A stretch of DNA of 64,000 bases from Lachnospirales bacterium (GTDB lineage: Bacteria > Bacillota > Clostridia > Lachnospirales > CAMZNU01), in contig JBKEBX010000012.1 of NCBI GenBank assembly GCA_047973385.1, positions 140,269-204,268 on the forward strand. Reading direction: 5' to 3'. The first letter of the stretch is position 1, and every line of letters begins with the position of its first letter. A model generated the notes under the pieces. That model was given only the letters and a program-made list of their open reading frames with translations, searched no databases and had not been told where the DNA came from. A program made the position numbers and the translations under genes. Shown piece by piece: positions 6,394 to 36,028 of this stretch.

Positions 6394-6437
6394 ATAGATA
6401 AAAAACAGTGTGTCTAAATAATGCAGAGGTGAAAATC

Positions 6438-6755: not shown

Positions 6756-6758
6756 TTT

Positions 6759-7321: not shown

Positions 7322-7351
7322 TATATTAAAATAATAGGAGGAACAAATTAT

Positions 7352-7624: not shown

Positions 7625-7633
7625 GTTGATGAT

Positions 7634-8287
7634 ATGGGAAATGAAGAGCTAGTTGAATACATATCCCAATTAGTCTTAAATGAACTTAAATCTTTAAACA
7701 ATGAAGCCGAACTTGTACCAGTAGGTGTATCGGCTAGACATGTGCATATTAGTGAAGAAGATTTTAAAGTATTGTTTGGCGAAAATGGTAAACTTACAGT
7801 TTATAAAGAGTTGTCACAGCCAAACCAATTTGCATCAGAACAAAAAGTTGATTTAGTTGGGAAAAAAGGAACTTTAAAAAATCTTAGAATTCTAGGACCT
7901 TTTAGAGATAAAACTCAAGTAGAGATTACTACTTCTGAATGTAGAATTTTAGGTTTTGAAAAAGTGCCAGTTAGGCAATCGGGTAATTTAAAAAATAGTT
8001 GTGGTGTAACCATAGTTGGACCATGTGGGAAAGTAACTTTAAAAGAGGGTGTTATAATTGCTGTTAGACATATACACGCTACAACAAAGGATGCTCTTAG
8101 GCTTGGGGTCAAAGACGGTGATGTTGTAGATGTAACTGTTGATGGTGATAAAGGCGGTGTTTTGTCAAATGTCATTGTTCGTGTAAATGATGCATATAAG
8201 CTAGAACTACACATTGATACTGATGATGCAAATGCTTTTAAAATTTTGAATGGGAAGAAGCTCAAGGTTGAGGTTGGAAAGAAGTAA
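7634..8287 (+). CDS. pduL: Phosphate acyltransferase PduL (phosphotransacylase)
   Basis: Two PduL repeats (GVSARHVHIS and AVRHIHAT) plus an N-terminal amphipathic helix, EELVEYISQLVLNELKSL. Confidence 0.88.
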   Translation: MGNEELVEYISQLVLNELKSLNNEAELVPVGVSARHVHISEEDFKVLFGENGKLTVYKELSQPNQFASEQKVDLVGKKGTLKNLRILGPFRDKTQVEITTSECRILGFEKVPVRQSGNLKNSCGVTIVGPCGKVTLKEGVIIAVRHIHATTKDALRLGVKDGDVVDVTVDGDKGGVLSNVIVRVNDAYKLELHIDTDDANAFKILNGKKLKVEVGKK

Positions 8288-8312
8288 TGTTAATTTGGGT
8301 AAGGAGGCAGTT

Positions 8313-9419: not shown

Positions 9420-9457
9420 TGTTTTAAACATGCAATTTTAAAGGTGGTGAATGGTTT

Positions 9458-16549: not shown

Positions 16550-18962
16550 TTTTTTTCCTTTCATCAAAACAGTGAGGCAAAGCTTCTGTAACTTTTGAAA
16601 CAAAAACAACTTCAATGTCTTTTGTGATATAATCTTCTAAATCATAAAAATGGCTTTTGTTTTTGGAAGGTATGAGGAACTTGTGTATCCCATAGTTTTT
16701 ACCGGCAAGTATTTTTTCTTTTAATCCACCGATAGGCAAAACATTACCTTTCATTGAGATTTCTCCAGTCATTGCAATATTTGCATTGACTTTGGAGTTT
16801 GACAAGATAGAGTACAATCCCATTGTGATGGCAAGTCCTGCAGATGGTCCATCTTTAGGTGTAGCACCTTCAGGAACGTGAATACTAACATCAATTTTAC
16901 TAAAGTCTATTTTTTGGAAACCAAAAGTTTTGGCATTAGACTTTAAATAAGCCATTGATATTCTTGCACTTTCTCCCATAACTTTTCCTATGTTACCTGT
17001 GAAATCAATTTTGCCGTTACCGTTAAATATAGCAAATTCCATAGGTAGAACTGTACCACCGTAAGAAGTGTATGCAAGGCCGTTTACAACTCCAACAGTT
17101 TTTGTTTTTATATTTATTGTTTTAAGTTCACGTTTTGCACCTAAATAATTTACAATATTGTTTTTGTTTATACTTACTTTAGTAAAATTTTCATTAGTAA
17201 GTTTTTCTAAAACCACTTTTCTACATATTTTTCCAATAGATTTTTCCAAGTTTCTTACACCTGCTTCTAAAGTGTAGTTTTCAACAATAGTAGTTATAGC
17301 TGTAAGTGGAATTGATAAGTCCTTATTTGTTAGATTATGTTTTTTAAGTAATTTAGGTATAAGGAAACTTTTTGCGATGTTTCGCTTTTCCTCAAGTGTA
17401 TATGTGTTAAGGTTTATTATTTCCATTCTGTCTAAAAGTGGAGCAGGTATTTTACTTTGGTTGTTTGCAGTACAAACAAATAGGCAATTTGATAAGTCAA
17501 AATCTAGTTCTAGGTACGTATCTCTAAAAGCAATATTTTGCTCTGGGTCAAGTACTTCAAGCATTGCACTTGAAGGGTCTCCTCTAAAATCGCTACTCAT
17601 TTTATCAATTTCATCAAACAATATAAGTGGGTTATTACTTTTAGCTTTAATTAGAGATGAAATAATTCTACCGTGAGTAGAACTAAGGTAAGTTCTTCTA
17701 TGTCCTCGTATTTCAGTTTCATCACGAATACCTCCTAGCGACAACCTAACATAGTTGCGATTTGTTGCTTTTGCGATACTTTTGGCAATAGATGTTTTTC
17801 CAACTCCAGGAGGTCCAACAAGACAAATTATAGTTGGTATATGTTCATTTGAAAATTGCTCAACGGCTAAATGTTCAAGTATACGTTCCTTGACTTTAAC
17901 AAGCCCAAAATGGTCAGAATTAAGTGTTTTTTCAGCATTTTTTATATTGTTATTAACTTTAGTAACCTGATGGTTACCCCAAGGAATACTTAAAGTTCTA
18001 TCAATGTAATCCTTTATATTACCAATTTCTTGAGAATTAGGTGGTAAGCTTTCTAAACGTGAAAACTCATTTTCTATTTTTTCCACTACATAATCAGGTG
18101 GGAGAATTTCAGCAAGTTTTTTACGGCATTCCTCTAAATATGCATTTATACTGGTGCTATCCCCGAGTTCTTCTTGAACTACTTTAAGCTTCTCTCGAAG
18201 CATATAGTTTCTTTGGGCTTCGTTCATAGATTTTTTAACTTTTTCCATTACTTCTTTTTCGATATTATGGTTAATATTTTGCATTTCTAAAAGTTCAAGG
18301 AAACAAGTTATTCTATCTAAAGCACTTTTGTTTTTTAAAAGCTTATTTTTTTCTTCTTTGCTAAAATTACTTTCTGTAATTAGAATATTCAAATATGTAT
18401 GAGAATTTTTAAAATTGTAAAAATTCGACACAACTTTTGCACCAATATTAAAATATTCATCGAAATTTACATTAAAGTTATCTGCACCAATACTTTTAAG
18501 CATACTTATATATGCTTTTTCTTTAACAGAATCTTTTGTAACAGGATATGATATTTCTGTAAATTTACATGATATGTAATTTCTTTTATTTACTAGCTCC
18601 AAAATTTTTGCAGCGTGTATGCAATATAACTCGAGTTTATAAGAGTTGTCCGACTCTTTACAAGTTAAAATTTTACATTTAACTCCAATATCGTAAAGAA
18701 GATGTAAATCTTTATTACTGTTAACTTTATTTTTATGATTTTTTTTAGTAACTAAGAAAATTTCTTTTAAACTAGATGTAGAGGCTAAAATAGAGTTTTT
18801 AGAAGACTCTTTATCTACGTCAATAGTTACAAAGGTACAAGGAAAAACAGTTATACTGTTAAGTTGTAACAGTGGTATAGAAGTATCGTTTTTATCTATA
18901 ATTTCAGGAATAATATAATTTTCTTTTGGAAAAATTTTATTTTGGTTATTTTTACTTTCCAT
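16536..18962 (-). CDS. lon: ATP-dependent Lon protease (LonA type)
   Basis: Walker A GPPGVGKTS, AAA+ core, the catalytic serine motif PKDGPSAG, and an N-terminal LON substrate-binding domain. It is 808 aa long. Confidence 0.93.
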   Translation of the reverse strand: MESKNNQNKIFPKENYIIPEIIDKNDTSIPLLQLNSITVFPCTFVTIDVDKESSKNSILASTSSLKEIFLVTKKNHKNKVNSNKDLHLLYDIGVKCKILTCKESDNSYKLELYCIHAAKILELVNKRNYISCKFTEISYPVTKDSVKEKAYISMLKSIGADNFNVNFDEYFNIGAKVVSNFYNFKNSHTYLNILITESNFSKEEKNKLLKNKSALDRITCFLELLEMQNINHNIEKEVMEKVKKSMNEAQRNYMLREKLKVVQEELGDSTSINAYLEECRKKLAEILPPDYVVEKIENEFSRLESLPPNSQEIGNIKDYIDRTLSIPWGNHQVTKVNNNIKNAEKTLNSDHFGLVKVKERILEHLAVEQFSNEHIPTIICLVGPPGVGKTSIAKSIAKATNRNYVRLSLGGIRDETEIRGHRRTYLSSTHGRIISSLIKAKSNNPLILFDEIDKMSSDFRGDPSSAMLEVLDPEQNIAFRDTYLELDFDLSNCLFVCTANNQSKIPAPLLDRMEIINLNTYTLEEKRNIAKSFLIPKLLKKHNLTNKDLSIPLTAITTIVENYTLEAGVRNLEKSIGKICRKVVLEKLTNENFTKVSINKNNIVNYLGAKRELKTINIKTKTVGVVNGLAYTSYGGTVLPMEFAIFNGNGKIDFTGNIGKVMGESARISMAYLKSNAKTFGFQKIDFSKIDVSIHVPEGATPKDGPSAGLAITMGLYSILSNSKVNANIAMTGEISMKGNVLPIGGLKEKILAGKNYGIHKFLIPSKNKSHFYDLEDYITKDIEVVFVSKVTEALPHCFDERKKNESK

Positions 18963-19027
18963 AACCTACCTCTTTCTATTTTTTATTATTTATTAAGTAA
19001 ATATCTAAAAAATCGCTTATTTTAATC

Positions 19028-19118
19028 TATCATAAAGTAATTTTCATAGAAAATTACAATAATCTTAATGTGTAGCTGTATTTTATGTAGCTACGCATTT
19101 AGTTTATTATATCATAAA
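19028..19118. repeat. 91-bp structured intergenic repeat, an inverted copy of 24152..24242
   Basis: The reverse complement matches 24152..24242 at 89/91 positions by hand alignment. It holds two hairpins, GTAGCT..AGCTAC and GTAATTTTC-nnn-GAAAATTAC, plus TTTATGATATAAT-like boxes. Confidence 0.75.
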
Positions 19119-19402
19119 TTAAACAATGGAGTTTTTAGAGGTGACATTAAGATTTAATATATAATTTAGTAGCTTTTAAACTATACTTTAGATATTTATT
19201 ATATAAAGCTACTTAAAATACTATGTAATATTGAAATGTTTGTATTTCAAGGTTACCATATACTATTTTAAATGTTTTTGTAGAAAAAAACAAGTAAAAC
19301 TTTTAAGAGTAAATTTTTGTATACATTTTTAAAAAAAATTATTGAATTAATAGTTTGTATGATGTATAATAATTATGGGGATAAAAGTTACTAATTGAAG
19401 AG

Positions 19403-19801
19403 GTGTATATGTATAGAAAGTTTTTTATTTTTATAATTGTGTGTATAATGATTGTTACTTTTTTTATGATAAATAAAGAGTTTAGATTTTTTACCCTTGT
19501 AACAGATAATGATGATAGGTTAGTTTCTTCTTTCGCTGCATTTAATGGAGTTGAAAAAAGAGAGGTTTATGTTCCAAAGGATAATGTTTTAAATATATAT
19601 AGTGATGTTACTATAAGTAAAGGCGATGTTGATATTGCCGTTTACAATGAAAAAGGTAAAGAAATCACGAGAATTGGGGAAGGTATAGATGTAACATCTA
19701 TTCGTTCAGGTGTAGACCAAAATATTACAATATCTATTGAAGCTAAGTGGGCTACTGGTGATTTTGATGTGTATTGGAAAGTAAGTGAAGATGTTAACTA
19801 A
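19403..19801 (+). CDS. Hypothetical membrane-anchored protein (132 aa)
   Basis: N-terminal hydrophobic helix FFIFIIVCIMIVTFFMI. An upstream promoter-like TTGAAT-17-TATAAT is present, and a strong terminator follows. Confidence 0.55.
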   Translation: MYMYRKFFIFIIVCIMIVTFFMINKEFRFFTLVTDNDDRLVSSFAAFNGVEKREVYVPKDNVLNIYSDVTISKGDVDIAVYNEKGKEITRIGEGIDVTSIRSGVDQNITISIEAKWATGDFDVYWKVSEDVN

Positions 19802-19829
19802 AAAAAGCTAGTGCGTACTAGCTTTTTTT
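19801..19829. terminator. Bidirectional intrinsic terminator
   Basis: AAAAAAGCTAGT-gcgt-ACTAGCTTTTTTT sits directly after the 19403..19801 stop. It is also correctly placed for the convergent small ORF. Confidence 0.75.
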
Positions 19830-19892
19830 AGTTACATTATAAGAGAAGTTTAAAATCTTAAATGAATTTTTTACAAGGTATGGAAATATGTT

Positions 19893-20027
19893 TTAGAAAA
19901 TATCGTTTACTTTATTTTTTATTTTCTTAGCACTTTTCATAGCTTTCTTTTTATTTTTTCTTACAACTGCATATGTTGTAACACCAAGAGTTAAAGCTCC
20001 CATCATTGCACGTCTTTGCATATCCAT
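19893..20027 (-). CDS. Unlisted small ORF, 44 aa, a basic single-helix membrane peptide (MDMQRRAMMGALTLGVTTYAVVRKNKKKAMKSAKKIKNKVNDIF)
   Basis: Hand translation. A strong RBS, AGGTGGTGA, lies 5 nt upstream of the ATG. The ORF ends before the shared terminator and is below the 60-aa cut-off of the ORF track. Confidence 0.4.
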   Translation of the reverse strand: MDMQRRAMMGALTLGVTTYAVVRKNKKKAMKSAKKIKNKVNDIF

Positions 20028-20274
20028 AACTATCACCACCTATACTATTTGTTTTTGGTATATTGTTAAATTTTAAAGGAAAAATAAGGTACAGTTTTAA
20101 AGATAAGTAATACAGTACCAAAAATTACAAGAAATAAATTTGTGCAATCTTAAAAAAATCAAGTTTTTCAAAACAATTGATTTAAACTATATTGCTTTTA
20201 TAACTTGTAATATGTATTTTGTACAAAAAAATAAATTTTTATACAAAAATACTTTTTTAAATGTTGCAAAAGTA

Positions 20275-20318
20275 AAAAAGACTGTAAAAATCGCATTAGC
20301 GATTTTTACAGTCTTTTT
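20275..20318. terminator. Perfect 20-bp stem hairpin, probable terminator of the trkH-trkA-trmH-ppiB transcription unit
   Basis: AAAAAGACTGTAAAAATCGC-atta-GCGATTTTTACAGTCTTTTT. Confidence 0.7.
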
Positions 20319-20330
20319 CGAAAATAAATA

Positions 20331-20458
20331 GGCAACGTTGCAAAATTCGTTTTACCGAGGACATTAGCGTAAAACACATCTTTTTGTGTATTTATATATA
20401 CATGGCAAAGCTATACTTTAAGCCGTTCCTATAAAAATGAAAATTTTGAAACGTCTTG
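20331..20458. repeat. ~128-bp element with the same terminal motif as E4/E2 (GGCAACGTTGCAAAAT ... AATTTTGAAACGTCTTG); MITE-like family copy E3
   Basis: Terminal inverted repeats found by hand alignment. It lies between the ppiB stop and its terminator hairpin. Confidence 0.45.
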
Positions 20459-20507
20459 AATTTGTATTGCAAATTTTGGCATAATTGCACTTTGTTGATG
20501 ATACCAA

Positions 20508-21026
20508 TTACATAATTTCTGGTTCTTGGAGTTCATCATCAATTTGAGTAATTGTAACTTCTTCCATTACTATATCTTCTAAAGGTCTATCTTGCATACC
20601 TGTTTCACAAGTAGCAATTTCATCAACAACATTCATGCCCTCAATAACTTTACCAAAAGCGGAATATTCTCCGTCTAAATGAGGTGAATCTTTGTGCATA
20701 ACAAAAAATTGTGAACCTGCTGAGTTATATGCTTGTGAACGTGCCATTGAAAGAACGCCTGCTGTATGTTTTAAATCATTATCAAAGCCATTTGACAAGA
20801 ATTCCCCTTTAATTGCATAACCAGGGCCTCCCATACCAGTGCCATTTGGACAGCCACCTTGTATCATAAAGTTTTCGATAACTCTATGGAAGATTAAGCC
20901 ATCATAAAAACCATTATCTACGAGAGATAAGAAATTGTTAACAGTATTTGGTGCGATTTCTGGATAGAGTTCAACAACAAAGGATTTACCGTTACTTAAA
21001 TAGAATGTTACTTGTGGATTGCTCAT
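20508..21026 (-). CDS. ppiB: Peptidyl-prolyl cis-trans isomerase, cyclophilin type
   Basis: Contains FHRVIENFMIQGG, SMARSQAYNSAGSQFF and FGKVIEGM. Confidence 0.92.
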   Translation of the reverse strand: MSNPQVTFYLSNGKSFVVELYPEIAPNTVNNFLSLVDNGFYDGLIFHRVIENFMIQGGCPNGTGMGGPGYAIKGEFLSNGFDNDLKHTAGVLSMARSQAYNSAGSQFFVMHKDSPHLDGEYSAFGKVIEGMNVVDEIATCETGMQDRPLEDIVMEEVTITQIDDELQEPEIM

Positions 21027-21037
21027 ATAAATCTCCT

Positions 21038-21868
21038 TTATTTATGGTCAAAAGACCTTTTTTGACGTAAAATTTCATATATCATAATACTACCGGCTAC
21101 GCTTACATTTAAACTTTCAGCATTACCTATAATAGGTATTTTTATAAGTTCATCAACAAGAGTTACTGTGTCCATATCTAAGCCATTGCCTTCGTTTCCG
21201 AGAAGTAGGGCAGATTTATCAGAATATGTAACAGTATCATAAAAATTGTCTGTATGTAAATATGTACCATATGTAGTAATAGAATATTTTTTAAAAATAT
21301 TAATTAAATCTTTAGTGTCTTTATAAGTATAGCAAGGAATGTTTAAAATTGAACCTGCCGTACTTCTTATAGATTTTGGGCTAAATGGGTCAGTTGAGTT
21401 GCCTGTAAATATACATATATCAAAACCACCTGAATCTGCAGTTCTTATGAGTGTACCTGCATTTCCAGGGTCCTGTATATTTTCACAAACTAAAATAGAA
21501 ATATTTTTATAATCTTTATATTGATTTAAAATATTGTCCATATCAACGTTAAGTGAGTTAAACTCAAAAACACACATTACTCCTTGAGGTGTCTTAGTAT
21601 CAGAAATACTTTTATAAATTTCTTCGGACACAACTAAAATTTCCATAGTTAAATTCTGAAAAGTTTTAAGTAAATTTTCATTAGAGTTTATGTTATCAAG
21701 GGCTTGTTCAGTAAGTATAAGATACTTAGGGTTGTATAGTTTACTATAATTTATAAATCGGTAGCCCTCTATAATAAATAAGCTTTCTTTTATACGGCCT
21801 TTTTTTGTTTCAAGGGAACGGATAAGTTTAAGAGTCTTATTCTCCTTGCTCGTCACTGTTTTCAGCAT
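21038..21868 (-). CDS. TrmH/SpoU-family RNA 2'-O-methyltransferase
   Basis: The SpoU C-terminal motifs are LLLGNEGNGL and IPIIGNAESLNVSVAGSIMIYE. Start at ATG 21868 after GGGGAG; the listed TTG 21883 is an alternative. Confidence 0.85.
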   Translation of the reverse strand: MLKTVTSKENKTLKLIRSLETKKGRIKESLFIIEGYRFINYSKLYNPKYLILTEQALDNINSNENLLKTFQNLTMEILVVSEEIYKSISDTKTPQGVMCVFEFNSLNVDMDNILNQYKDYKNISILVCENIQDPGNAGTLIRTADSGGFDICIFTGNSTDPFSPKSIRSTAGSILNIPCYTYKDTKDLINIFKKYSITTYGTYLHTDNFYDTVTYSDKSALLLGNEGNGLDMDTVTLVDELIKIPIIGNAESLNVSVAGSIMIYEILRQKRSFDHK

Positions 21869-22526
21869 CGTATATCTCCCCAACTTTGTTAATGCTAGAG
21901 TTACTAGCCACTACAAGTAGAACATCATCTTTTTCGATAACTTCTGTTGCTGCAGGTGAAATAATAAGTTTTTTACCACGCTTAATAACGATTACATTTA
22001 TATTGTACTCATTTCTAAGGTCTGTATCAATTAAATTTTTTCCAACCCATTTACTTATAGGGGAAATTTCAGCAATTGTGTAATTCTCTGATAAGTTTAT
22101 GTATTCAACAACATTTTGGTTAAGTAATGATTGTGCTACTTTTGTACCCATTTCACGTTCAGGGGAAACAATTCTGTCTGCACCAACTTTTTTAAGTATA
22201 GTTTCATGAGTTTTGTTTTTTGCCTTAACAATTACTTGGCGTACACCTGCTTCTTTAGCAGACATTGTAGCCATAATCGTTGCCTCCATATCAGAAGCAG
22301 CAGCTATTATAACACAATCGAAGTTGTTAAGTCCAAGTGCGTTAAGTGTAGATTCGTCGCTTATATCGGCACGAACTACATGAGTTGCCACGTTAGATAG
22401 TTTCTGTACAATTTCAGGATTTTTATCACAAGCTAGAACATCTTTGCCATTTTCAGCAAGAGCATGTACGATACTTTCTCCAAATCTCCCAAGTCCAAGA
22501 ACTGCATATTGTTTGTTATTTGCCAT
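21837..22526 (-). CDS. trkA: Potassium uptake protein, NAD-binding subunit TrkA/KtrA
   Basis: Rossmann motif YAVLGLGRFGESI and a C-terminal RCK_C domain. It is adjacent to trkH. Confidence 0.9.
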   Translation of the reverse strand: MANNKQYAVLGLGRFGESIVHALAENGKDVLACDKNPEIVQKLSNVATHVVRADISDESTLNALGLNNFDCVIIAAASDMEATIMATMSAKEAGVRQVIVKAKNKTHETILKKVGADRIVSPEREMGTKVAQSLLNQNVVEYINLSENYTIAEISPISKWVGKNLIDTDLRNEYNINVIVIKRGKKLIISPAATEVIEKDDVLLVVASNSSINKVGEIYDAENSDEQGE

Positions 22527-22539
22527 AAAAAATTCCTTC

Positions 22540-23937
22540 CTAACCTACAAGTACATTTTCTTCTAGGTATTCCAATGAGTTATTTGTTTCTGTCATTTTA
22601 GCAGTTAAAGCTACACCAACAGAAATTGGACCAAGACGTCCTAAAAACATACAAATTATAATAATAATACGACTTAAAGTACTAAGGCTAGAAGTAAGAC
22701 CAGTTGAAAGACCAACTGTTCCTATTGCCGAAGCAACTTCAAAGGAAATATCAATAAATGAAAATCCTGATTCTTTTTCTATAACAAGTAGTAAAAAAGT
22801 TGCAAGGAAAAATACAATAATATAAATAGTTGTAACAGAAAGTGCTTTTCTAACTAAAGATGAAGGTATAGTTCTGTTAAAAACAATAGTTCTGCTTTGA
22901 CCTCGTATTACAGATACAACTGTAAGGATTACAATAGCTAGTGTAACAGTTTTAAGACCACCTGCAGTACCTCCAGGACTTCCTCCTATAATCATAAAGA
23001 ATATAGATACGAGTTTTGATGCGTCCGTTAAACCTCCCATAGATATTGTGTTAAAACCTGCTGTTCTAAGGGAAACAGAGTGGAATAGGGAAGTTAGGAT
23101 TTTACTACCAAAACTTAGATTTCCAATTGTTAAATCATTAGTATATTCTATTATAAAGAAGGCTACCCAACCAACTAAAATTAAAACGATTGATGCGTTA
23201 ATAGCTATTTTTGAGTGTAAAGTTAGTTTTTGGTATTTTTCTTTTAAAGTAGCTTTTTTGTTTTTAAACTTAAATTTTCTAACTCTGTTTACGTCTAACC
23301 AAAGTGCAAAACCTGCACCACCTGAAATTATAAGGAACATTAACACTAAATTTACAAGTAAGTGGTTATAGTATGGAGTTAAACTACTATCTCCTAAAAT
23401 ATCAAAACCTGCATTACAAAAAGCTGAAACAGCATGGAATATACCCATAAACAAACTTGTTCCAAAACTAACATCAAGGTCAATATAAAAAACAATTGTA
23501 AAAATTATAGCGGCAATACCTTCGAATATGAATGTACCTTTAATAGCTTTTGTTACAAGTTTTACCATTCCGTGAAAAGTTGGTTGGTTTAAGCTTTCTT
23601 GTATAACTAATCTTGATTTTAAAGAAACTTTTTTTCTGAAAACAAGATAAAACATTGTTATAATTGCCATAAATCCAAGACCACCGATTTGGATTAATAT
23701 AAGTATGACTACTTTTCCAAAAAAACTCCAGTGAGCAAGGGTGTTAACAACAACAAGACCTGTAACGCATACTGCTGAAGTTGAAGTGAACAGTGCTGTT
23801 AAAAAATCAGTTGGAGTACCTGCTTTACTTGAAACAGGAAGCATCAAAAGAATTGTTCCTAAAAAAATAATAGTTAGGAAACCTGTTATAATTATTTGTG
23901 TCGGTGTTGCATTTTTATAAATTTTTATGATATTCAT
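22540..23937 (-). CDS. trkH: Potassium transporter membrane subunit TrkH/KtrB
   Basis: Polytopic protein with repeated selectivity-filter-like segments (TAGFNT, CNAGFD, VGLSTG). Confidence 0.9.
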   Translation of the reverse strand: MNIIKIYKNATPTQIIITGFLTIIFLGTILLMLPVSSKAGTPTDFLTALFTSTSAVCVTGLVVVNTLAHWSFFGKVVILILIQIGGLGFMAIITMFYLVFRKKVSLKSRLVIQESLNQPTFHGMVKLVTKAIKGTFIFEGIAAIIFTIVFYIDLDVSFGTSLFMGIFHAVSAFCNAGFDILGDSSLTPYYNHLLVNLVLMFLIISGGAGFALWLDVNRVRKFKFKNKKATLKEKYQKLTLHSKIAINASIVLILVGWVAFFIIEYTNDLTIGNLSFGSKILTSLFHSVSLRTAGFNTISMGGLTDASKLVSIFFMIIGGSPGGTAGGLKTVTLAIVILTVVSVIRGQSRTIVFNRTIPSSLVRKALSVTTIYIIVFFLATFLLLVIEKESGFSFIDISFEVASAIGTVGLSTGLTSSLSTLSRIIIIICMFLGRLGPISVGVALTAKMTETNNSLEYLEENVLVG

Positions 23938-24091
23938 ATTTGCACCTTTTAATTTTCCTTTTATTCAAAATAATTATATCATAGAGGCTTTTTAAAAACA
24001 ACTATATTTTTATATATTTTAAACGTTTTTATATTTTTTGCAAGAAAAAAAGATTTGTAATATTTTTTGTAAGATGTTATAATAACCTAAA

Positions 24092-24246
24092 GTCGTAGCC
24101 ATGTATACGAGGCTACACATTAAGATTATTGTAATTTTTAAAGAAAATTACTTTATGATATAATAAACTAAATGCGTAGCTACATAAAATACAGCTACAC
24201 ATTAAGATTATTGTAATTTTCAAAGAAAATTACTTTATGATATAAT
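24092..24246. repeat. Two tandem copies (24092..24164 and 24165..24246) of the two-hairpin repeat unit, immediately upstream of lysA
   Basis: Each unit has hairpin 1 (GTAGCC..GGCTAC or GTAGCT..AGCTAC), then ACATTAAGATTATT, then hairpin 2 (GTAATTTTY-aaa-GAAAATTAC), then TTTATGATATAAT. A compensatory change is visible in the stem of hairpin 1. Confidence 0.75.
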
Positions 24247-24274
24247 ATTTATAAGCAATTAAGAGGAGTATAGT

Positions 24275-25537
24275 ATGGAGAAATTATCAAAGGAAATGAA
24301 TTTTTTTAAGAATAATAATGCGAATGAACTTATGGAGAAATATGGTTCTCCATTGTATGTATATAGTGAAGATATACTGCTTGAAAGAACTAGGGAAATA
24401 AAGCAACTTGTTGATTATGATAACTTTGTTGTAAATTATAGTGCTAAGGCAAATACAAGTCTTGGTATTTTACAGATAATTGAAAAAGAAGGCTTACACG
24501 TTGATGCTATGAGTCCAGGAGAAATTTTTGTTGAAATGGAAGCAGGTTTTACAAGTGATAGGATTTTTTATATAAGTAACAATGTAAATGAAGATGAATT
24601 GATTTTTGCTCTTGAAAAAGGCGTAATAGTAAGTATAGATAGTTTATCACAACTTGAAATGATAGGTAACATCCATAAGAAAGCTTTAGTTAAAGGTTTT
24701 GACGGTGGAGTTTGTGTTAGATTTAATAGTGGCGTTGGTGCAGGTCATCACGAAAAAGTTGTTACAGGTGGTAAAAAGACTAAATTTGGTATTAATAGCG
24801 AGTATCTTGAAGATGTAAAAACAATTGCTAAGGAATATGATTTGAAAATAATCGGTATAAATCAACATATTGGCTCTTTGTTTATGGACGGTGAAAGCTA
24901 TATTCAAGGTGCTAAAAATATGATTGACCTTGCGAAAGAATTTCCTTTAATTAAATTTGTGGATTTAGGTGGAGGCTTTGGTATTCCATATAATAGAAAA
25001 CATGGTGAAAAGGCTTTAGATTTAAAAGAACTTGGAGAAATACTCTCAAAATACATAAATGACTTTACAAAAGAACTGGGTAGAGAAATAATCTTTAAAG
25101 TAGAGCCGGGACGTTACATAGCTTGTGAATGTGGTGTTATACTTGGAAAGGTAACTTCCATAAAAGAAAATAGTGGAGTTAAGTATGTTGGTTGCGATAT
25201 AGGATTTAACGTGCTTCAAAGACCTGTTATGTATGATAGTTACCATGAAATTGAAATTGACAGTCAAGACGGTGAACTTGAAAAAGTTACCGTAGTAGGA
25301 AACATTTGCGAGAGTGGTGATGTTTTAGGCAAAGATAGAATATTGCCAAAGGCAAGTGTTGGCGATGTTGTAACAGTTTATGATGCAGGTGCTTATGGAT
25401 ATACTATGGCGTCAAATTACAACCAAAGATTACGTCCTGCTGAAGTGCTTATACGTTCGAATGGTGAAGTTGTTTTACTTAGAAAAAGGGATTCTTTTGA
25501 GAGTTTAATAGAAAATCAGTTTAAAATTAATGTATAA
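24275..25537 (+). CDS. lysA: Diaminopimelate decarboxylase
   Basis: PLP-dependent Orn/DAP/Arg decarboxylase pattern: YSAKAN, DLGGGFGIPY, EPGRY, CESGD. It is 420 aa long. Confidence 0.92.
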   Translation: MEKLSKEMNFFKNNNANELMEKYGSPLYVYSEDILLERTREIKQLVDYDNFVVNYSAKANTSLGILQIIEKEGLHVDAMSPGEIFVEMEAGFTSDRIFYISNNVNEDELIFALEKGVIVSIDSLSQLEMIGNIHKKALVKGFDGGVCVRFNSGVGAGHHEKVVTGGKKTKFGINSEYLEDVKTIAKEYDLKIIGINQHIGSLFMDGESYIQGAKNMIDLAKEFPLIKFVDLGGGFGIPYNRKHGEKALDLKELGEILSKYINDFTKELGREIIFKVEPGRYIACECGVILGKVTSIKENSGVKYVGCDIGFNVLQRPVMYDSYHEIEIDSQDGELEKVTVVGNICESGDVLGKDRILPKASVGDVVTVYDAGAYGYTMASNYNQRLRPAEVLIRSNGEVVLLRKRDSFESLIENQFKINV

Positions 25538-25558
25538 ACGTATTGAAGGTGCTGATAA

Positions 25559-26041
25559 ATGATAGAAAAAATAGTACTGCACAAATTAAATAGTATTTTG
25601 TCTAAAATTAAAGTAGCTACGCCTTCAGATGTAGATATTGTCACGAAAATTATGATAAAGTTATACGAGGGTACGGATTTTAATTTATTATATAGAGAAA
25701 ATAGAGAATTACTATCTGATAAAAAACAAAGAGTTTTTTTATGTGCAGATGAAGAAGATGTGATAATTGGATTTGCTCATTGTTCTATGCGTTATGAATA
25801 TGTTGAGGGAACAAGTGATGGCGTGAAAGGCTATTTAGAAGGAATATATGTTGAAAAAGAGTATAGAAGTCAAGGCATAGGCAAAGCTCTTGTCGATAAT
25901 TGTAAGTTTTGGTGCAAGGAAAATGGTGCGAAGGAGTTTGCAAGTGACTGTGAAATTAACAATGTTGAAAGTTATAAGTTTCATATGGAACTAGGATTTG
26001 AAGTGGCAAATAAAATTATTTGTTTTAAACAGACAATATAG
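25559..26041 (+). CDS. GNAT-family N-acetyltransferase (AAC(6')-like)
   Basis: Acetyl-CoA motif YVEKEYRSQGIGKALVD and a C-terminal FHMELGFE. Confidence 0.75.
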   Translation: MIEKIVLHKLNSILSKIKVATPSDVDIVTKIMIKLYEGTDFNLLYRENRELLSDKKQRVFLCADEEDVIIGFAHCSMRYEYVEGTSDGVKGYLEGIYVEKEYRSQGIGKALVDNCKFWCKENGAKEFASDCEINNVESYKFHMELGFEVANKIICFKQTI

Positions 26042-26054
26042 AAATGAGTTATTT

Positions 26055-26534
26055 ATGAGTAGAAATAAAATTTGCATTATTATATCTTGGGCATTAGTTA
26101 TACTTTGGTGTTTGCTTATTTTCCGATTTTCATCACAAGTTAGAGAAACCTCAAATACTTTAAGTACAGGCATAACTGAAATTATTAAAAACTTTTTAGA
26201 GTCTATTGCTCCAAATCAAGTTTTTGATTTAGAAAACTTAAACCACATAATTAGAAAGATGGCTCATTTTTGCGTATATCTTGGACTTGGTTTTTTGCTT
26301 TTAAATGCATTTTATGTATCTGATATGTATAGTTTTAAGTTTATTCTAATTACTTTGGGTTTATGTGTATTATACGCTATAAGTGATGAAATTCATCAAA
26401 TGTTTGTGCCTGGCCGAGGACCTCAAGTAAAAGATGTTTTTATAGATAGTGCAGGTTCTTTAACAGGTATTGCTATATATTGCTTTATAGTAATGTTATG
26501 GAATAAATTTTTTGACAAGAAAAATATAATATAA
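26055..26534 (+). CDS. VanZ-like family membrane protein
   Basis: Four predicted TM helices, with KMAHFCVYLGLG and DEIHQMFVPGRG motifs. Start at the internal ATG 26055. Confidence 0.7.
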   Translation: MSRNKICIIISWALVILWCLLIFRFSSQVRETSNTLSTGITEIIKNFLESIAPNQVFDLENLNHIIRKMAHFCVYLGLGFLLLNAFYVSDMYSFKFILITLGLCVLYAISDEIHQMFVPGRGPQVKDVFIDSAGSLTGIAIYCFIVMLWNKFFDKKNII

Positions 26535-26577
26535 TTTAACACATATAAAATCTATATATGGAAATACTAAATAAAAA

Positions 26578-26642
26578 GGTTACCTCTAAAAACTCAATTT
26601 GTTTAATCGAAAGATAAAAACAAGCGAGTGTATAGAGATTTC
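26578..26642. repeat. Imperfect long hairpin of the GGTTACCTCTAAAAACTCA repeat family
   Basis: GGTTACCTCTAAAAACTCAATTTGTTT ... AAACAAGCGAGTGTATAGAGATTTC. Related copies lie at 35058..35128 and 19119..19146. Confidence 0.45.
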
Positions 26643-26663
26643 TGAAAAAATTTATGAGGTATT

Positions 26664-28061
26664 ATGGAATTAGATTTTGTTGTGGAAAAAATTAAAAGTA
26701 AGTTAAATGTTGATAAAAGCTTTGATATTGTTGGTCGGGATATTTTTATTGGTGATAAAAAAGGATATTTTGTATTTGTCGATGGTTTTGCTAAAGACGA
26801 TGTTTTGTATTATTTACTTGAAAATATTCAAAAGGCTAAGCCTTTTAGTAATCTTGGAGATTTTCTTGCAAAAGAAATAGCATATATAGAAAGCGAAATA
26901 GTAAAAGACGACAATGAGTATGATAAATTAGTTTTATCGGTTTTATGTGGTATGTTTGCTTTAGTTATTGACGGATATGATGAATATATATTAATTGACT
27001 CCAGACAATACCCTATGCGTTCTGTAACAGAAAGCGAAGTTGAAAAAGTTATACGAGGTGCAAAGGATTCATTTGTTGAAACAATAGTTTTTAATACGGC
27101 ACTAATACGTAGAAGAATTAGGTCTGAAAAACTGATTTTTGAAATGGAGCAAATAGGTGAATATTCTAAAACTGATATAGCTATATCATACATTGATGGT
27201 TTAGTTGATGAAAAAGTATTAGAAGAAGTAAAATCAAGGATAAAAAGTATAAATACAAAGGCTGTTATTTTAGGAGCTGAATATATAGAAGATTTGTTAT
27301 TTAAGAAGAAATGGTATAATCCTTTGCCTCTTGTTAAATACACAGAGCGTCCTGATGTAGCTGCAGCTTATTTATCTGAAGGGCATATTTTACTTATAAT
27401 TGACACTTGTCCAGTAGGTATTGTGTTACCTATTACTATTTTGCAATTTGCCCAACATATTGGTGATTATAATGTAAAGTTTATAAACGGCACTATTGCA
27501 AAGATAATGCGTTTTGTTGCTATAATTTCTTCTGTTATCTTTATACCGATTTTTATTTATTTAGCAGAGAATACTAAGGTTTTTGAGGAACTATCAAAAA
27601 AAGGTGACACACCTGAAGAAATGCTTTTTTCTTTTTCTGTACAAATTATTATTTTAGAAATTGCATTTTTAAGTTTACAAATGTCATCGCTACACATACC
27701 TACACAAATTGCCCCTTTGTTTGCAATCGTGGGAGGTTTGCTTTTAAGTGATGTTGCTATAAAACTTGGTATAGTAAATCCTATAACCCTCATAGCTATG
27801 GCTATAACAGTTATAAACACTTATAGTATACCAAGTATAGAGTTTTCTGACGCAATAAGGATTTTTAGGTTTTTTATGATACTTATGACAGGCTTTTTTG
27901 GAATTGTAGGTTTACTTATTTCTTTGATAATTGTAATTGGTATAACTTATTCAACGGAAGTTGTTAAAGGAGCAAAAAAGTATACTTATCCGATTGTTCC
28001 CTTTAATTTTAACGACTTGAAAAGCTTGTTGTTTAGAGAAAATGCAAAGGATATGAAGTAG
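26664..28061 (+). CDS. Spore germination protein, GerA-family A subunit / SpoVAF-like
   Basis: GerA-family pattern: an N-terminal soluble domain, ESEVEKVIRGAKDSFVE, and C-terminal TM helices. It is 465 aa long. Confidence 0.8.
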   Translation: MELDFVVEKIKSKLNVDKSFDIVGRDIFIGDKKGYFVFVDGFAKDDVLYYLLENIQKAKPFSNLGDFLAKEIAYIESEIVKDDNEYDKLVLSVLCGMFALVIDGYDEYILIDSRQYPMRSVTESEVEKVIRGAKDSFVETIVFNTALIRRRIRSEKLIFEMEQIGEYSKTDIAISYIDGLVDEKVLEEVKSRIKSINTKAVILGAEYIEDLLFKKKWYNPLPLVKYTERPDVAAAYLSEGHILLIIDTCPVGIVLPITILQFAQHIGDYNVKFINGTIAKIMRFVAIISSVIFIPIFIYLAENTKVFEELSKKGDTPEEMLFSFSVQIIILEIAFLSLQMSSLHIPTQIAPLFAIVGGLLLSDVAIKLGIVNPITLIAMAITVINTYSIPSIEFSDAIRIFRFFMILMTGFFGIVGLLISLIIVIGITYSTEVVKGAKKYTYPIVPFNFNDLKSLLFRENAKDMK

Positions 28062-28086
28062 GTTACCGTAAAATAAGGAGATAAAT

Positions 28087-28650
28087 ATGATAATAACTAC
28101 TTCTGATTTTGGTTTTAAAACCATAGAGAACATGAAAATTCATGGGTTTTTTGAAAAAAGTTTAGATTTAGTAAATGAAGTTGATTGGGTTGCTACAAAG
28201 GATTTTAACAATATTGCTAAAAATCATTGTGGAGCAGTTGCTGTTACAAATATTATTATGTACTTAGATAAAAAGTATAGAGTTAAAGAAAAATCTAATA
28301 AACTGATTTTTAGGAAAGTTCACAAAACAATTGGCAACGGGCCTATATTTAACATAACTTATGGGCTTAAAGCATATTATAAATCTCTTGGGAAAGATTT
28401 GACTATTTATAAAGTTAAAAATGTTTCAGAGTATAAAAGAGCTATCCATAACAATATGCCTGTAGGTATCTTAGTTGCTAACGGTGTAAAAGGGTGGCAT
28501 TGGATTGTTGGTATAGGATATAGACAATATAAAAATGGTGAATTATACTTTATAGTAAAAGACGGTTGGAATAAAAAAGCAAATCGATATTACATGATAA
28601 ATAAAGGCTCTAGGTTGCTAACAGCTACTGCGTATGGAATGGCAACCTAA
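28087..28650 (+). CDS. Hypothetical protein, possibly a papain-fold (C39-like) cysteine peptidase
   Basis: Candidate Cys (KNHCGAVAVTNI) and His (GWHWIVGIGY) motifs only. This is a weak assignment. Confidence 0.4.
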   Translation: MIITTSDFGFKTIENMKIHGFFEKSLDLVNEVDWVATKDFNNIAKNHCGAVAVTNIIMYLDKKYRVKEKSNKLIFRKVHKTIGNGPIFNITYGLKAYYKSLGKDLTIYKVKNVSEYKRAIHNNMPVGILVANGVKGWHWIVGIGYRQYKNGELYFIVKDGWNKKANRYYMINKGSRLLTATAYGMAT

Positions 28651-28673
28651 AACAAGAAAATTTAGCAAAAAAC

Positions 28674-28716
28674 GAAGAAAGTAGCAAGGCTATGTTAAAA
28701 ACCTTACTACTTTCTT
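28674..28716. terminator. Hairpin between convergent genes (28087..28650 and kbl)
   Basis: GAAGAAAGTAGCAAGG ... CCTTACTACTTTCTT followed by a T run. Confidence 0.6.
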
Positions 28717-28755
28717 TTTATATTTGTTATTATTTAGGGACAATTTAAGGTAAAA

Positions 28756-29943
28756 TTACATAAGTTTATTTATAACATCAACAATAATATTAAATGCTTT
28801 ATCTAGTTCTTCATAACTTAAAGTATCAGATATTTGTAAGCGAACACGAGCTTCACCTTCAGGAACAACAGGGAAACCAAAACCAGTAGTATACAAGCCT
28901 TGCTCCATCATCATTTCAGCAGCTTTTATAGCAACGGCTGTTTCACCAACAATAATTGGTATAATAGCAGAATCACCGTCAAGAGGCTTAAGTCCAGCAT
29001 CTTTTAACTTTTTACGCATATATTCTGTTTTTTCTTTTAAAGATGAAACAATATTTGGGTTATCTCTTAAAAAGTCAATACTTGCACTACCTATTGCACA
29101 TAAAACAGGAGGAAGTGAATTGCTAAATAGATGAGGGCGGCTTTTTTGGATAAGAAGCTCTGTTACATCTTTTGTACTTGCTATAAAACCTCCACCTGCA
29201 CCACCAAGAGCTTTACCTAAGGTACCTGATACAAGGTCAACGCCCTCTGTAATATTATAATATTCCATAGTACCACGACCTGTTTTACCGATCACACCAG
29301 TGGAATGAGAATCATCAACCATAAGTATAGCATTATATTTTTTACAAAGTGCAATAATTTCAGGTAGCTTACAAATGTCACCTTCCATTGAAAATACGCC
29401 GTCAGTAACAACTAGGGCAACACCACAATCTTTTGTTTCAATAAGTCTTTCTTCAAGACTTTCCATATCAGAATGTTTATAAACTTTTTTAAGTACGCCC
29501 TTGCCGGCAAGTCTACAACCGTCAATTATAGATGCGTGGTTAAGTTCATCAGATATAATTACATCACCGTCATTTACAAGAGCAGGAATAACTGCATTGT
29601 TTGCTGAAAAACAAGATGTATAAGTAATTGAACTTTCAAAGCCTAAAAAATCGGCAATATTTTGTTCTAAAACTCTATGAATTTCAAAAGTTCCACATAT
29701 AAATCTTACAGAACTTGCACCACAGCCATAGTTGTCCAAAGCTTCTTTTGCTTTTTCAACTACATATGGATTATTACTCATACCAACATAGTTGTTACTA
29801 CACATAATTATACGTTCACCAAAGTTTTCAACAGTTGCTGTACTATTTAAAGGGCTTTGTAAGATATTAAGTTTTTTATAAGTACCATTTTTTAAATGGT
29901 TATCAAGAGTTTGTCTTGTTTCTTCATAAAAGTTTTTTCTCAT
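28756..29943 (-). CDS. kbl: 2-amino-3-ketobutyrate CoA ligase (glycine C-acetyltransferase)
   Basis: Alpha-oxoamine synthase pattern (DELNHASIIDG, DDSHSTG, SGTLGKALGG). It is directly downstream of tdh. Confidence 0.9.
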   Translation of the reverse strand: MRKNFYEETRQTLDNHLKNGTYKKLNILQSPLNSTATVENFGERIIMCSNNYVGMSNNPYVVEKAKEALDNYGCGASSVRFICGTFEIHRVLEQNIADFLGFESSITYTSCFSANNAVIPALVNDGDVIISDELNHASIIDGCRLAGKGVLKKVYKHSDMESLEERLIETKDCGVALVVTDGVFSMEGDICKLPEIIALCKKYNAILMVDDSHSTGVIGKTGRGTMEYYNITEGVDLVSGTLGKALGGAGGGFIASTKDVTELLIQKSRPHLFSNSLPPVLCAIGSASIDFLRDNPNIVSSLKEKTEYMRKKLKDAGLKPLDGDSAIIPIIVGETAVAIKAAEMMMEQGLYTTGFGFPVVPEGEARVRLQISDTLSYEELDKAFNIIVDVINKLM

Positions 29944-29944
29944 A

Positions 29945-31000
29945 TTATTTCTCCCATAAGTATTCTAAGTCTAAAACTACTTTACCACATTTACCAGCTA
30001 ACATAAGTTCAAATCCTTTTTCAAATTCTTCAAACTTAAATCTGTGAGTTATAATTTTTTCAAGTTCTAAGCCAGTATCAATAAGCATTTCCATTTTATA
30101 CCAAGTTTCGAACATTTCACGTCCGTATATACCTTTGATATGAAGGCATTTGAAAACAACATCATTCCAGTTAACACTTGCGTTAGTGTCTTGGATACCA
30201 AGCATGGCAATTTTTCCACCATGTTTCATGTTCGTAATCATATCTCTTAAAGCTATTTCGTTACCACTCATTTCAAGTCCCACATCAAAGCCCTCTCTCA
30301 TACCGAGTTCTTTTTGGTAATCTGCAAGAGCAACCTCTTTAGTATTTATAACATGTTTGATACCTATTTTTTTTGCAAGTGCAATACGTTCAGGATTAAC
30401 ATCTGTTAAAACTACATTTCTTGCTCTAATATGTTGGCATATCATAGCTGCCATTATACCAATTGGACCAGCACCAGTGACTAAAACATCTTCTCCCATA
30501 GTATCAAAGGAAAGTGCAGTATGGACAGCATTACCATATGGGTCATAAACTGAATACAACTCTTTTGGAACATTTTTCTTTGTTTTCCATATATTAACAG
30601 CAGGAACTTTAACATATTCGGCAAAACAACCGTTAATGTTAACTCCTATACCTCTTGTATCTTTACATAAATGATATCGACCAGCACGACAGTTTCTACA
30701 TTCACCACATACTAAGTGACCTTCACCAGTAACAATATCGCCGATCTTTAAAGCTTTGACATCGCTTCCGACTTCAACTATTTCTCCTACATATTCATGT
30801 CCCACAGTCATACCTACTTGAATAGTATTTTTAGCCCATTCATTCCATTCGTATATATGTACATCAGTACCACAAATGGCAGTTTTCATAACACGAACCA
30901 ATACCTCATTATTACTGATTTTTGGCACAGGAACTTCCTCTAGCCATAAACCTACTTTATCATGTTTTTTTGTTAAAGCTTTCATAGTTGTTGGTATCAT
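29945..31000 (-). CDS. tdh: L-threonine 3-dehydrogenase
   Basis: Zn-ADH family with ICGTDVHIY, GHEYVGEIVEVG and the CGECRNCRAGRYHLC structural Zn site. It is paired with kbl. Confidence 0.92.
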   Translation of the reverse strand: MIPTTMKALTKKHDKVGLWLEEVPVPKISNNEVLVRVMKTAICGTDVHIYEWNEWAKNTIQVGMTVGHEYVGEIVEVGSDVKALKIGDIVTGEGHLVCGECRNCRAGRYHLCKDTRGIGVNINGCFAEYVKVPAVNIWKTKKNVPKELYSVYDPYGNAVHTALSFDTMGEDVLVTGAGPIGIMAAMICQHIRARNVVLTDVNPERIALAKKIGIKHVINTKEVALADYQKELGMREGFDVGLEMSGNEIALRDMITNMKHGGKIAMLGIQDTNASVNWNDVVFKCLHIKGIYGREMFETWYKMEMLIDTGLELEKIITHRFKFEEFEKGFELMLAGKCGKVVLDLEYLWEK

Positions 31001-31192
31001 AAAGACCTCCTAAAAAATAATCATTTTTACACCTAAAGTATAACATTTATTGGCACTTGTGTAAACAGTGAAAAATAAACAAAAAAAAGTTTATACAGTT
31101 TAGACATATTTTGATAAAAGAAATATACATATTTACAACTATCTTGCAAAATTCTACATATTGTGGTATATTATTAAATTAGAGGTGATTGA

Positions 31193-32098
31193 ATGAAAAT
31201 GGAAGTTAGGGATTTGTGTAAATGCTTTAGCAACAAGGTTGTTCTTGACAACTTGAATTTTGAATTTGAAAGTGGTAAATGCATAGCTGTTTTAGGGAGA
31301 AACGGTGCAGGGAAGACTACTTTATTTAGAACAATACTTGGTATTATAAATCATGATTATGGTGAAATATTAATAGATGGAAAACCCATTGATAAAGATA
31401 AAATAAAGATTGGATATTTGCCTGAAGAAAGAGGTTTGTATTTAAAAAGAACTGTTTATGAACAAATGATGTATTTTGGTCGATTAAAAGGTTTATCTAA
31501 AGAAGTATGTAGTCAAGTTATTGATTTATTGTTGGAGAAACTTGAGGCAACAGAGTATAAGTTTAAACGACTTGAAACTTTATCTAAGGGTAACCAACAA
31601 AAAATTCAACTTGCTATTTCTGTTATAGATAATCCTGATATAATAATTTTTGATGAGCCTTTTTCGGGGCTTGACCTAGTAAGCGCAAAGATTTTAAAGG
31701 ATTTGATAGAAGATTTTGCAAGTAATGGGAAATTGGTTATTTTTTCTAGTCATGAAATTACATATCTAGAAGGGTTTTGTGAATATTTAGCTATTTTGCA
31801 CAATAATAAAATTGAGATAACAGGGAGTATCAGTGAAATTAAGAGTAACTACTCTAAAAATTTAATAAAGGTGTGCTTTAGTAATTATAATAGGGCTGAA
31901 CTTGCCGTTTATGATGCTGAAGTTTTATCGTTATGTAATAATGTTGATATTGATGGTAATGATGTGATTTTTGATTTAAAGGACATAAATTACAAGAATA
32001 AATTACAAAAAGTATTAATTGACAAATCGTGGTACTTTAATTATTTTGAAGTGCATACACCAACATTAGAGGAAATTTTCATTGATAAAGTGGGGTAG
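31193..32098 (+). CDS. ABC transporter ATP-binding protein (ABC-2/NatA-like exporter)
   Basis: Contains GRNGAGKTT, LSKGNQQK and IIIFDEPFSGLD. Confidence 0.88.
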   Translation: MKMEVRDLCKCFSNKVVLDNLNFEFESGKCIAVLGRNGAGKTTLFRTILGIINHDYGEILIDGKPIDKDKIKIGYLPEERGLYLKRTVYEQMMYFGRLKGLSKEVCSQVIDLLLEKLEATEYKFKRLETLSKGNQQKIQLAISVIDNPDIIIFDEPFSGLDLVSAKILKDLIEDFASNGKLVIFSSHEITYLEGFCEYLAILHNNKIEITGSISEIKSNYSKNLIKVCFSNYNRAELAVYDAEVLSLCNNVDIDGNDVIFDLKDINYKNKLQKVLIDKSWYFNYFEVHTPTLEEIFIDKVG

Positions 32099-36008: not shown

Positions 36009-36028
36009 AATATAAAAAGGAGAAGGTT

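Follow-up and report, generated by a model that had tools for sequence, protein, structure and literature searches.

The DNA analysed here is a stretch of 64,000 nucleotides (hereafter the 64-kb window) from the metagenome-assembled genome of an uncultured Lachnospirales bacterium with 30% G+C. It contains near-identical copies of a short two-hairpin repeat, placed in inverted orientation on either side of a block of about 5 kb. Both repeat sites are divergent intergenic regions, with the repeat units lying on the side of lon, which adjoins engB on the minus strand as a lon-engB pair, and on the side of lysA on the plus strand. An earlier note on this DNA had described the units as facing outward toward these two genes and had listed a hypothetical gene, a small open reading frame (ORF), ppiB, trmH and trkAH in the block between them. 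The outward orientation was confirmed, and the annotation returned the same gene content for the block (Table 1).

Alignment of the two copies bore out the central description of the earlier note: the reverse complement of 19028–19118 matches 24152–24242 at 89 of 91 positions, and both mismatches (19048 and 19046) fall within the 3-nt loop of hairpin 2 (TAT vs. AAA). The inverted arms reach 100 nt at 95% identity (19023–19122 and 24148–24247) and enclose an exact core of 70 nt, in which 19049–19118 is the reverse complement of 24152–24221. A 27-mer core was found in three copies in the window, compared with none in 100 shuffles. The module has a period of 82 bp. On the lysA side, the further tandem unit that had been reported (unit 1) is indeed present with this 82-nt period, but its homology starts at approximately 24074 rather than at 24092, and it has its own TGnTATAAT at 24075–24083. 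The 3′ 54 nt of unit 1 differ from the downstream unit by one mismatch, and its 5′ half has diverged. A still more decayed partial unit was found upstream of unit 1, at approximately 24045–24073. The lysA side accordingly carries about 2.5 tandem modules and the lon side one, with every module oriented toward its gene. The statement that each unit ends in a TGnTATAAT box held for the lysA side, where the box is TTTATGATATAAT, but not for the lon unit, which starts with TTTATGATATAAT and ends in the degenerate TTTATGATAGATT.

The repeat was compared with an independent assembly, namely the Logan contigs of sample SRR30067236 (k = 31). Three of these contigs, running from 24169 to 20449, from 19091 to 20446 and from 24218 to 31537, were 99.8%–99.95% identical to the window. 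They reproduced unit 1, the inner junctions and the lysA-proximal end, and each of them ended inside the repeat. Because this independent assembly matches unit 1 and all junction flanks, an assembly artefact was ruled out as the origin of the repeat. Two of the contigs (19091–20446 and 20449–24169) also meet at 20446–20449, where the window has no repeat; this break could represent a drop in coverage or a strain variant. A 70-nt exact inverted repeat of this kind breaks short-k assemblies and can mis-orient scaffolds.

Read toward the gene, a unit consists of an extended −10 box (TRTGnTATAAT), hairpin 1, a 14-nt linker (ACATTAAGATTATT), a palindrome (hairpin 2) and the next TTTATGATATAAT. Hairpin 1 starts about 11 nt after the −10 box and has the core GTAGCT-N11-AGCTAC, replaced in unit 1 by GTAGCC-N10-GGCTAC (family GTAGCY/RGCTAC). 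The change of the stem from GTAGCT/AGCTAC to GTAGCC/GGCTAC, which the earlier note had pointed out, was thus evident in the aligned units, and the 6-bp stem is kept in all three units although the loop of unit 1 is unrelated and of another length. Hairpin 2 is a perfect 9+3+9 palindrome, GTAATTTTC-NNN-GAAAATTAC, and extends over the −35/spacer region that belongs to the next −10 box. Its three copies vary solely in the central 3 nt and at the innermost arm position; the C-to-T change already noted in this hairpin lies at the loop-closing pair and gives G-U in plus-strand RNA. Dyads of the form GTAGC..GCTAC occur five times in the window compared with 0.34 expected, and four of the five are located at the two repeat loci. 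This recurrence lends some extra support to the dyad.

Table 1. Features of the two repeat loci and of the genes beside them. Positions refer to the 64-kb window; promoter assignments are predictions. A point marks features not assigned to a strand.
Feature	Position	Strand	Details or basis
lon (endopeptidase La, TIGR00763), putatively served by the lon-side unit	16536..18962	-	annotation
lon-side cassette copy, 100-nt arm of the inverted repeat, toward lon	19023..19122	-	95% over 100 nt, exact core 19049-19118
P2' TTTATGATAGATT, degenerate extended -10 (TGnTAGATT), ~60 nt before lon ATG	19024..19036	-	alignment
Hairpin 2/palindrome GTAATTTTC-TAT-GAAAATTAC, over P2' -35 region	19037..19057	.	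pattern search, folding
Hairpin 1, lon unit (core GTAGCT-N11-AGCTAC, 19072-19094)	19067..19099	.	+ strand: 15-bp helix with 3 G-U, then TAGTTTATTA
P1' TTTATGATATAAT, TRTGnTATAAT-type extended -10, upstream end of lon unit	19106..19118	-	motif scan
Bracketed block	19123..24054	.	130-aa membrane protein (+); 44-aa ORF, peptidyl-prolyl isomerase (PPIase), SpoU/TrmH-family methyltransferase, trkA, trkH (all -)
Extra inverted repeat AGTAGCTTT-N28-AAAGCTACT, GTAGC/GCTAC arms, 50 nt inside lon unit	19168..19213	.	dyad scan
P0 TTGTAA-17-TATAAT, TG at -15/-14, promoter candidate of diverged unit 1	24055..24083	+	promoter scan; aligned to P1
Hairpin 1a GTAGCC-N10-GGCTAC, compensatory T-A to C-G pair, unrelated loop	24095..24116	+	alignment, folding
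Palindrome 2a GTAATTTTT-AAA-GAAAATTAC, half-site altered at one position, G-U in RNA of the + strand	24131..24151	.	pattern search, folding
P1 TTTATGATATAAT	24152..24164	+	motif and promoter scans
Hairpin 1b (core 24176-24198), identical to lon copy	24171..24203	.	-8.8 kcal/mol on +, -14.5 on -
Palindrome 2b GTAATTTTC-AAA-GAAAATTAC, over P2 -35 region	24213..24233	.	pattern search, promoter scan
P2 TTTATGATATAAT, 28 nt before lysA ATG (24275)	24234..24246	+	motif and promoter scans
lysA (diaminopimelate decarboxylase, TIGR01048), putatively served by the tandem units	24275..25537	+	annotation

The promoter scan identified three candidates on the lysA side, P0 (24055–24083), P1 (24137–24164) and P2 (24217–24246), each with 10 of 12 matching positions and a TG extension, and it located the −35 hexamers of P1 and P2 within the palindrome. 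P2 was the only proximal candidate before lysA, with the Shine–Dalgarno (SD) sequence alone in the 28 nt between it and the start codon. Because only this ribosome-binding site separates P2 from the lysA ATG, the outward orientation is almost certainly the one that functions as the lysA promoter. The motif TRTGNTATAAT occurs nine times in the window, compared with 1.2 expected. Three of these occurrences belong to the units, and the motif was also found in the correct orientation upstream of trkH (23973, minus strand), of the gene at 37392 and of the gene at 58184. Judging from this distribution, TRTGnTATAAT behaves as a strong-promoter signature of this genome, and the boxes of the units look like genuine sigma-A extended −10 promoters. 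With P2 as the sole candidate for lysA and the extended −10 box enriched, the proposal of the earlier note that the units are a promoter/leader or an operator element common to unrelated genes is a reasonable reading.

No further copy was detected in the window by nhmmer, by mismatch pattern searches or by a covariance model run without filters, all of which recovered the three units only; the best other match in the window (46357–46434) was unrelated on inspection. Neither the 22-mer core (exact matches) nor a gapped pattern of hairpin 1 plus linker had a match in the GTDB genomes (185,579, one per species), and there were no matches in viral contigs. A blastn search of plasmids and phages gave nothing significant, the sole match being one of 45 nt to a plasmid (E = 1e-3). 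Two matches in JGI metagenomes were attributed to chance, as both lie within coding sequence and have no flanking similarity. When the open inward frame of the unit was translated, it shared no words with 5.8 billion proteins. Rfam returned no match at gathering score in the 64 kb, and at permissive thresholds the region of 18.9–24.4 kb gave chance-level matches only (E ≥ 1), including a weak one to CRISPR-DR63 (E = 1.9) that was rejected as chance; the units thus correspond neither to a lysine riboswitch nor to another known Rfam family. The earlier note had proposed a genome-wide search for the unit followed by a covariance model; no copies to build a family on emerged, with none found beyond these two sites in the public collections searched and the unfiltered model restricted to the same three units in the window.

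This lineage is sparsely sampled, with the nearest LysA being 73% identical and the nearest Lon 56%. The lysA loci of three relatives had different neighbours and no unit. Two relatives keep the order of trkH, trkA, SpoU, PPIase and small ORF, the opposite hypothetical gene and lon-engB as in the window. The lon loci of these two syntenic relatives also had no unit, their Smith–Waterman scores not exceeding those of shuffles, and the spacer between the hypothetical gene and lon was 170–181 nt in the relatives vs. 446 nt here. One of them has a gene other than lysA upstream of trkH. The two unit-free syntenic relatives imply that the lon cassette was either gained in this lineage or lost in both relatives, and from their shared block order it follows that the 5-kb block lies in its ancestral orientation with respect to lon. 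Upstream of lon in one relative (L010, 5083–5097), ATAGTAAACTAAAT matches 13 of 14 nt of the −10/+1 stretch of the unit, ATAATAAACTAAAT; this match was not significant compared with shuffles, and no homology is claimed.

Our results give somewhat better than an even chance that the repeat is a lineage-specific, recently duplicated sigma-A promoter/5′-leader cassette with an 82-bp period, belonging to the class of putative mobile promoters (PMPs). As such, the cassette is a case of local promoter reuse and not a new RNA family, an inversion switch or a new class of element. PMPs (Matus-Garcia, Nijveen and van Passel 2012; commentary PMC3575422) are recognised by an identity of 80% or more across 50 nt or more in the region from −150 to −50 of unrelated genes, and more than 4000 families have been reported, most of which are pairs without a known mobile element or Rfam match (PMC3575422). 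In the present case, 19045–19112 and 24158–24225 are identical at 66 of 68 positions and lie inside both −150 to −50 windows. Lon and LysA belong to different protein families (TIGR00763 and TIGR01048), and the homology between their upstream regions stops before the SD sequences. The two loci therefore resemble the reported families in that a similar stretch of at least 50 nt precedes non-homologous genes, in being a pair, and in having no known insertion sequence (IS) and no Rfam match; in both cases, the high identity may stem from recent copying or from selection. They differ in that the copies are 5 kb apart and inverted, the units at one site form a tandem array of graded divergence, and the cassette has two defined dyad symmetries, one of them over the −35 region. 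The 98% identity of the copies is to be read as recent copying or gene conversion, not as constraint on each base.

Under this explanation, a promoter region of about 82 bp would have been duplicated in tandem at lysA and copied in inverted orientation before lon, or vice versa. The tandem duplication would have given lysA two to three stacked promoters (P0, P1 and P2), the inverted copy would drive lon (P1′ and P2′), and transcription is predicted to start about 7 nt after each −10 box. Hairpin 1 would then fold at the very start of the transcript from the preceding promoter, as a stem-loop of the leader RNA. Stabilising stem-loops are known at the 5′ ends of transcripts in Firmicutes. Palindrome 2 could serve as the operator of a dimeric DNA-binding repressor that co-regulates lon and lysA, and the cassette probably places the two genes under one operator. 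The restriction of its variation to the centre and the innermost arm base would suit a dimeric repressor as well as a stem. Should this explanation hold, the locus is an example of natural regulatory rewiring by promoter duplication, co-regulation of lon and lysA is predicted, and the tandem array before lysA displays successive stages in the decay of promoter copies. A more far-reaching version appears improbable to us, namely an undescribed, lineage-restricted device that spreads by copy-and-paste and couples Lon proteolysis to lysine biosynthesis, either as a two-hairpin leader and its cis-antisense RNA, both made by a bidirectional promoter into which an antisense terminator is built, or as the operator set of a nutrient-sensing repressor.

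As for the repressor, the arms of the palindrome correspond to the CodY half-sites AATTTTC/GAAAATT, and the palindrome overlaps the promoter of an amino-acid biosynthesis gene, lysA, which is the usual repressor geometry. The consensus of the CodY box, AATTTTCWGAAAATT, is a 15-nt palindrome with a 1-nt centre (PMC9318921), whereas the arrangement here is AATTTTC-N3-GAAAATT, with a 3-nt centre and four to five mismatches to the 15-mer in either register; lon does not belong to the classical CodY targets. For Synergistetes, it has been reported that CodY-like proteins tolerate different spacers between AT-rich arms (PMC9318921). A CodY-like protein is therefore mentioned here as a candidate for the palindrome-binding repressor, purely as a lead. 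The preQ1 and mini-ykkC motifs and the boxes of TnrA, Zur, Rex and LysR (T-N11-A) were compared with the sequences by eye; they were rejected for misfits in spacing or sequence, and Rfam was negative for the RNA motifs. A leader peptide, for which a 14-codon ORF starting at the ATG of unit 2 was considered, was ruled out, as this ORF has no SD sequence and its frame is not kept in unit 1.

Several observations weigh against a promoter cassette under a common operator. The promoter calls are consensus matches. There was no canonical CodY box (≤ 2 mismatches) at these loci, neither the palindrome nor the canonical CodY box was enriched elsewhere in the window, no regulator gene was present nearby, and no codY gene was seen in the annotation of the window. 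The copy number within this genome refers to the 64-kb window, and dispersed copies elsewhere are possible. Finally, the strand of hairpin 1 opposite to the proposed transcripts folds into 15 contiguous pairs including three G-U (−14.5 vs. −8.8 kcal/mol) and is followed by a U-rich tail, which hints at an RNA read inward.

With regard to RNA structure, both strands of every unit folded better than shuffles (z of −3.4 to −5.5), with z at −4.7 to −5.5 for the two near-identical units and −3.4 for unit 1. Both helices are 100% paired over the three units, with one compensatory pair and one G-U change. The earlier note took this covariation as an indication that the hairpins are selected, a conclusion that did not withstand comparison with shuffles: 168 of 500 reached the covariation score of the three sequences, two of which are near-identical. 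The covariation evidence is anecdotal and not significant, and the units do not qualify as a covariation-supported structured RNA.

The strand asymmetry of hairpin 1 forms the basis of an alternative explanation, in which the unit is read inward as a small RNA or terminator. Being near-symmetric, the −10 boxes would also fire on the opposite strand, where their reverse complements are TATTAT and TATCAT, and yield a divergent RNA of about 70 nt consisting of palindrome 2, the linker, the 15-bp hairpin 1 and the U-rich tail. This RNA would be perfectly antisense to the lon and lysA leaders; alternatively, the hairpin might insulate the hypothetical gene and trkH. Read inward, hairpin 1 passed the terminator scan at 19067–19099 (plus strand) and 24203–24171 (minus strand) as 15-pair stems followed by TAGTTTATTA, and its fold of −14.5 kcal/mol is similar to that of the terminator of the hypothetical gene (−13.5 kcal/mol); no upstream gene ends at either position. 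All three non-Watson–Crick positions are G-U on the inward strand and A-C on the outward strand, but by our own estimate three G-U on one strand correspond to approximately p = 0.05. The A-rich 5′ and U-rich 3′ flanks give terminator polarity inward only. On the other hand, the promoter scan found none on the inward strand before the units, the −10-like hexamers in this direction have neither TG nor a −35 element, and the extended 15-bp helix and its tail are absent from unit 1, in which only the 6-bp core is kept. The C-to-T change in palindrome 2a also gives G-U outward and A-C inward. The functional strand of hairpin 1 is thus ambiguous, with helix asymmetry favouring the inward direction and both the promoters and the G-U of palindrome 2a favouring the outward direction. 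The variable length of its loop (10, 11 and 28 nt) argues against a protein site with fixed spacing. Overall, we consider an inward-read RNA or terminator unlikely.

A second alternative is that the units are three outward small-RNA genes, a tandem pair before lysA and a single one before lon, all with a promoter of their own. In this case, hairpin 2 and the following UUUAU would serve as a weak terminator, and lon and lysA would be expressed by read-through. Tandem multi-copy small-RNA genes exist, such as LhrC1-4 in Listeria and PrrF1/2 in Pseudomonas, and the present locus shares with them head-to-tail units of < 100 nt, the presence of separate promoters and a single additional copy at another locus. 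A strong extended −10 box at the start of each unit, the two hairpins with the z-scores given above, the tandem layout and the presence of UUUAUGAU directly after hairpin 2 are all consistent with such genes. Unlike LhrC1-4 and PrrF1/2, however, the units have no convincing promoter-sense terminator. As RNA, hairpin 2 reaches only −5.2 kcal/mol with two G-C pairs and fails the terminator scan, its apparent tail belongs to the next promoter, and it is unlikely to act as a terminator. Moreover, the last unit is fused to the ribosome-binding site of lysA, with P2 directly on the SD sequence and ATG, and cannot be a separate gene; no homologue was found in Rfam or in the searched collections. Small-RNA genes of this type are, in our view, rather improbable.

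A miniature, non-autonomous mobile element with an outward promoter, inserted before lon and lysA and resembling miniature inverted-repeat transposable elements (MITEs), Correia elements or REP sequences, would also account for near-identical copies before unrelated genes and for the lack of the unit from the same spacer in the two syntenic relatives. Correia elements (MITEs of Neisseria) and ERIC/REPIN sequences are likewise short intergenic repeats that provide outward promoters and a stem-loop in the 5′ untranslated region of unrelated genes. Further similarities are TTTATGATA at both ends of each unit, the hairpin start GTAG, which is like the head of REP sequences, and the breaks of the Logan contigs inside the repeat. 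However, terminal inverted repeats or paired REPs, target duplications and copy numbers in the tens to hundreds per genome characterise the known elements, and none of these features was seen here. The unit ends are direct (TTTATGATA...TTTATGATA), not the terminal inverted repeats of MITEs; they represent the 82-nt period and are identical at both loci, and the three known copies account for the contig breaks. Unlike the end hairpins of elements derived from IS200/IS605, hairpin 1 (GTAGCT...) and hairpin 2 (GTAATTTTC...) do not resemble each other, and despite the GTAG start there are no inverted pairs of like hairpins as in REP, BIME or REPIN sequences. No transposase or RAYT gene was present in the annotated regions of the window, and the unit was found at two sites only in the 64 kb and nowhere in the public collections searched. 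An element of this kind accordingly has little probability.

The least probable alternative, and a very doubtful one, is that the inverted copies let the 5-kb segment between them invert, as a switch of phase or orientation. The inverted repeat around 19123–24147 (70 nt exact, 100 nt at 95%) is formally a substrate for homologous inversion, as stated in the earlier note, and RecA can use repeats of such lengths at low frequency. However, no recombinase gene was found in the block or next to it, the block of two repeat-free relatives (Lon about 55% identical) is oriented as it is here, the orientation is beyond the resolution of the k = 31 Logan contigs, and a flip would not rewire lon or lysA, because both outward promoters lie inside the repeats and would stay in place, with only the extra tandem unit shifting to the lon side.

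Several other features of the window were recorded. The loop of the extra inverted repeat at 19168–19213 contains a TTTATATAATAAAT stretch on the minus strand that is similar to the −10 box of the units. Its fold is neither stable nor thermodynamically significant, and it may be a decayed or rearranged fragment of a unit. A second ACATTAAGATT at 19144 was considered as a sign of a reversed unit and dropped, as another 39 exact matches of 11 nt to the unit with its flanks (24148–24262) occur in this AT-rich window. Within the block, an inverted repeat of 20 perfectly matching bp around a 4-nt loop (20275–20318; −26.3 kcal/mol, z = −10) has A5/T5 on its flanks. Located in the spacer upstream of the 3′ end of the PPIase gene, it resembles a bidirectional terminator.

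Near lon, the cluster tig-clpP-clpX-lon-engB that is usual in Firmicutes is split, with tig-clpP-clpX (37392–40856, plus strand) about 18 kb from lon-engB (15953–18962, minus strand). This split is old, as lon is preceded by the trkH block instead of clpX in two relatives as well. In addition to lysA, the window contains dapF and an LL-diaminopimelate aminotransferase gene (35151–37216), and no lysine riboswitch or other match at the Rfam gathering threshold in the 64 kb. Directly downstream of lysA, a GNAT gene (25559–26041) matched the NCBIfam aminoglycoside 6′-N-acetyltransferase group E with 150.4 bits against a cut-off of 140. A 906-aa ORF at 40976–43696 (minus strand) is unusual in its architecture, in that its first ~66 residues match the C-terminal domain of RpoA and the rest has no NCBIfam match at E ≤ 1e-10. 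Finally, 5560–14764 is occupied by a microcompartment-type cluster encoding two class II aldolases, a phosphate propanoyltransferase (PTAC), an aldehyde dehydrogenase, a BMC-domain shell protein, an Fe-alcohol dehydrogenase and a 3-hydroxyacyl-CoA dehydrogenase.

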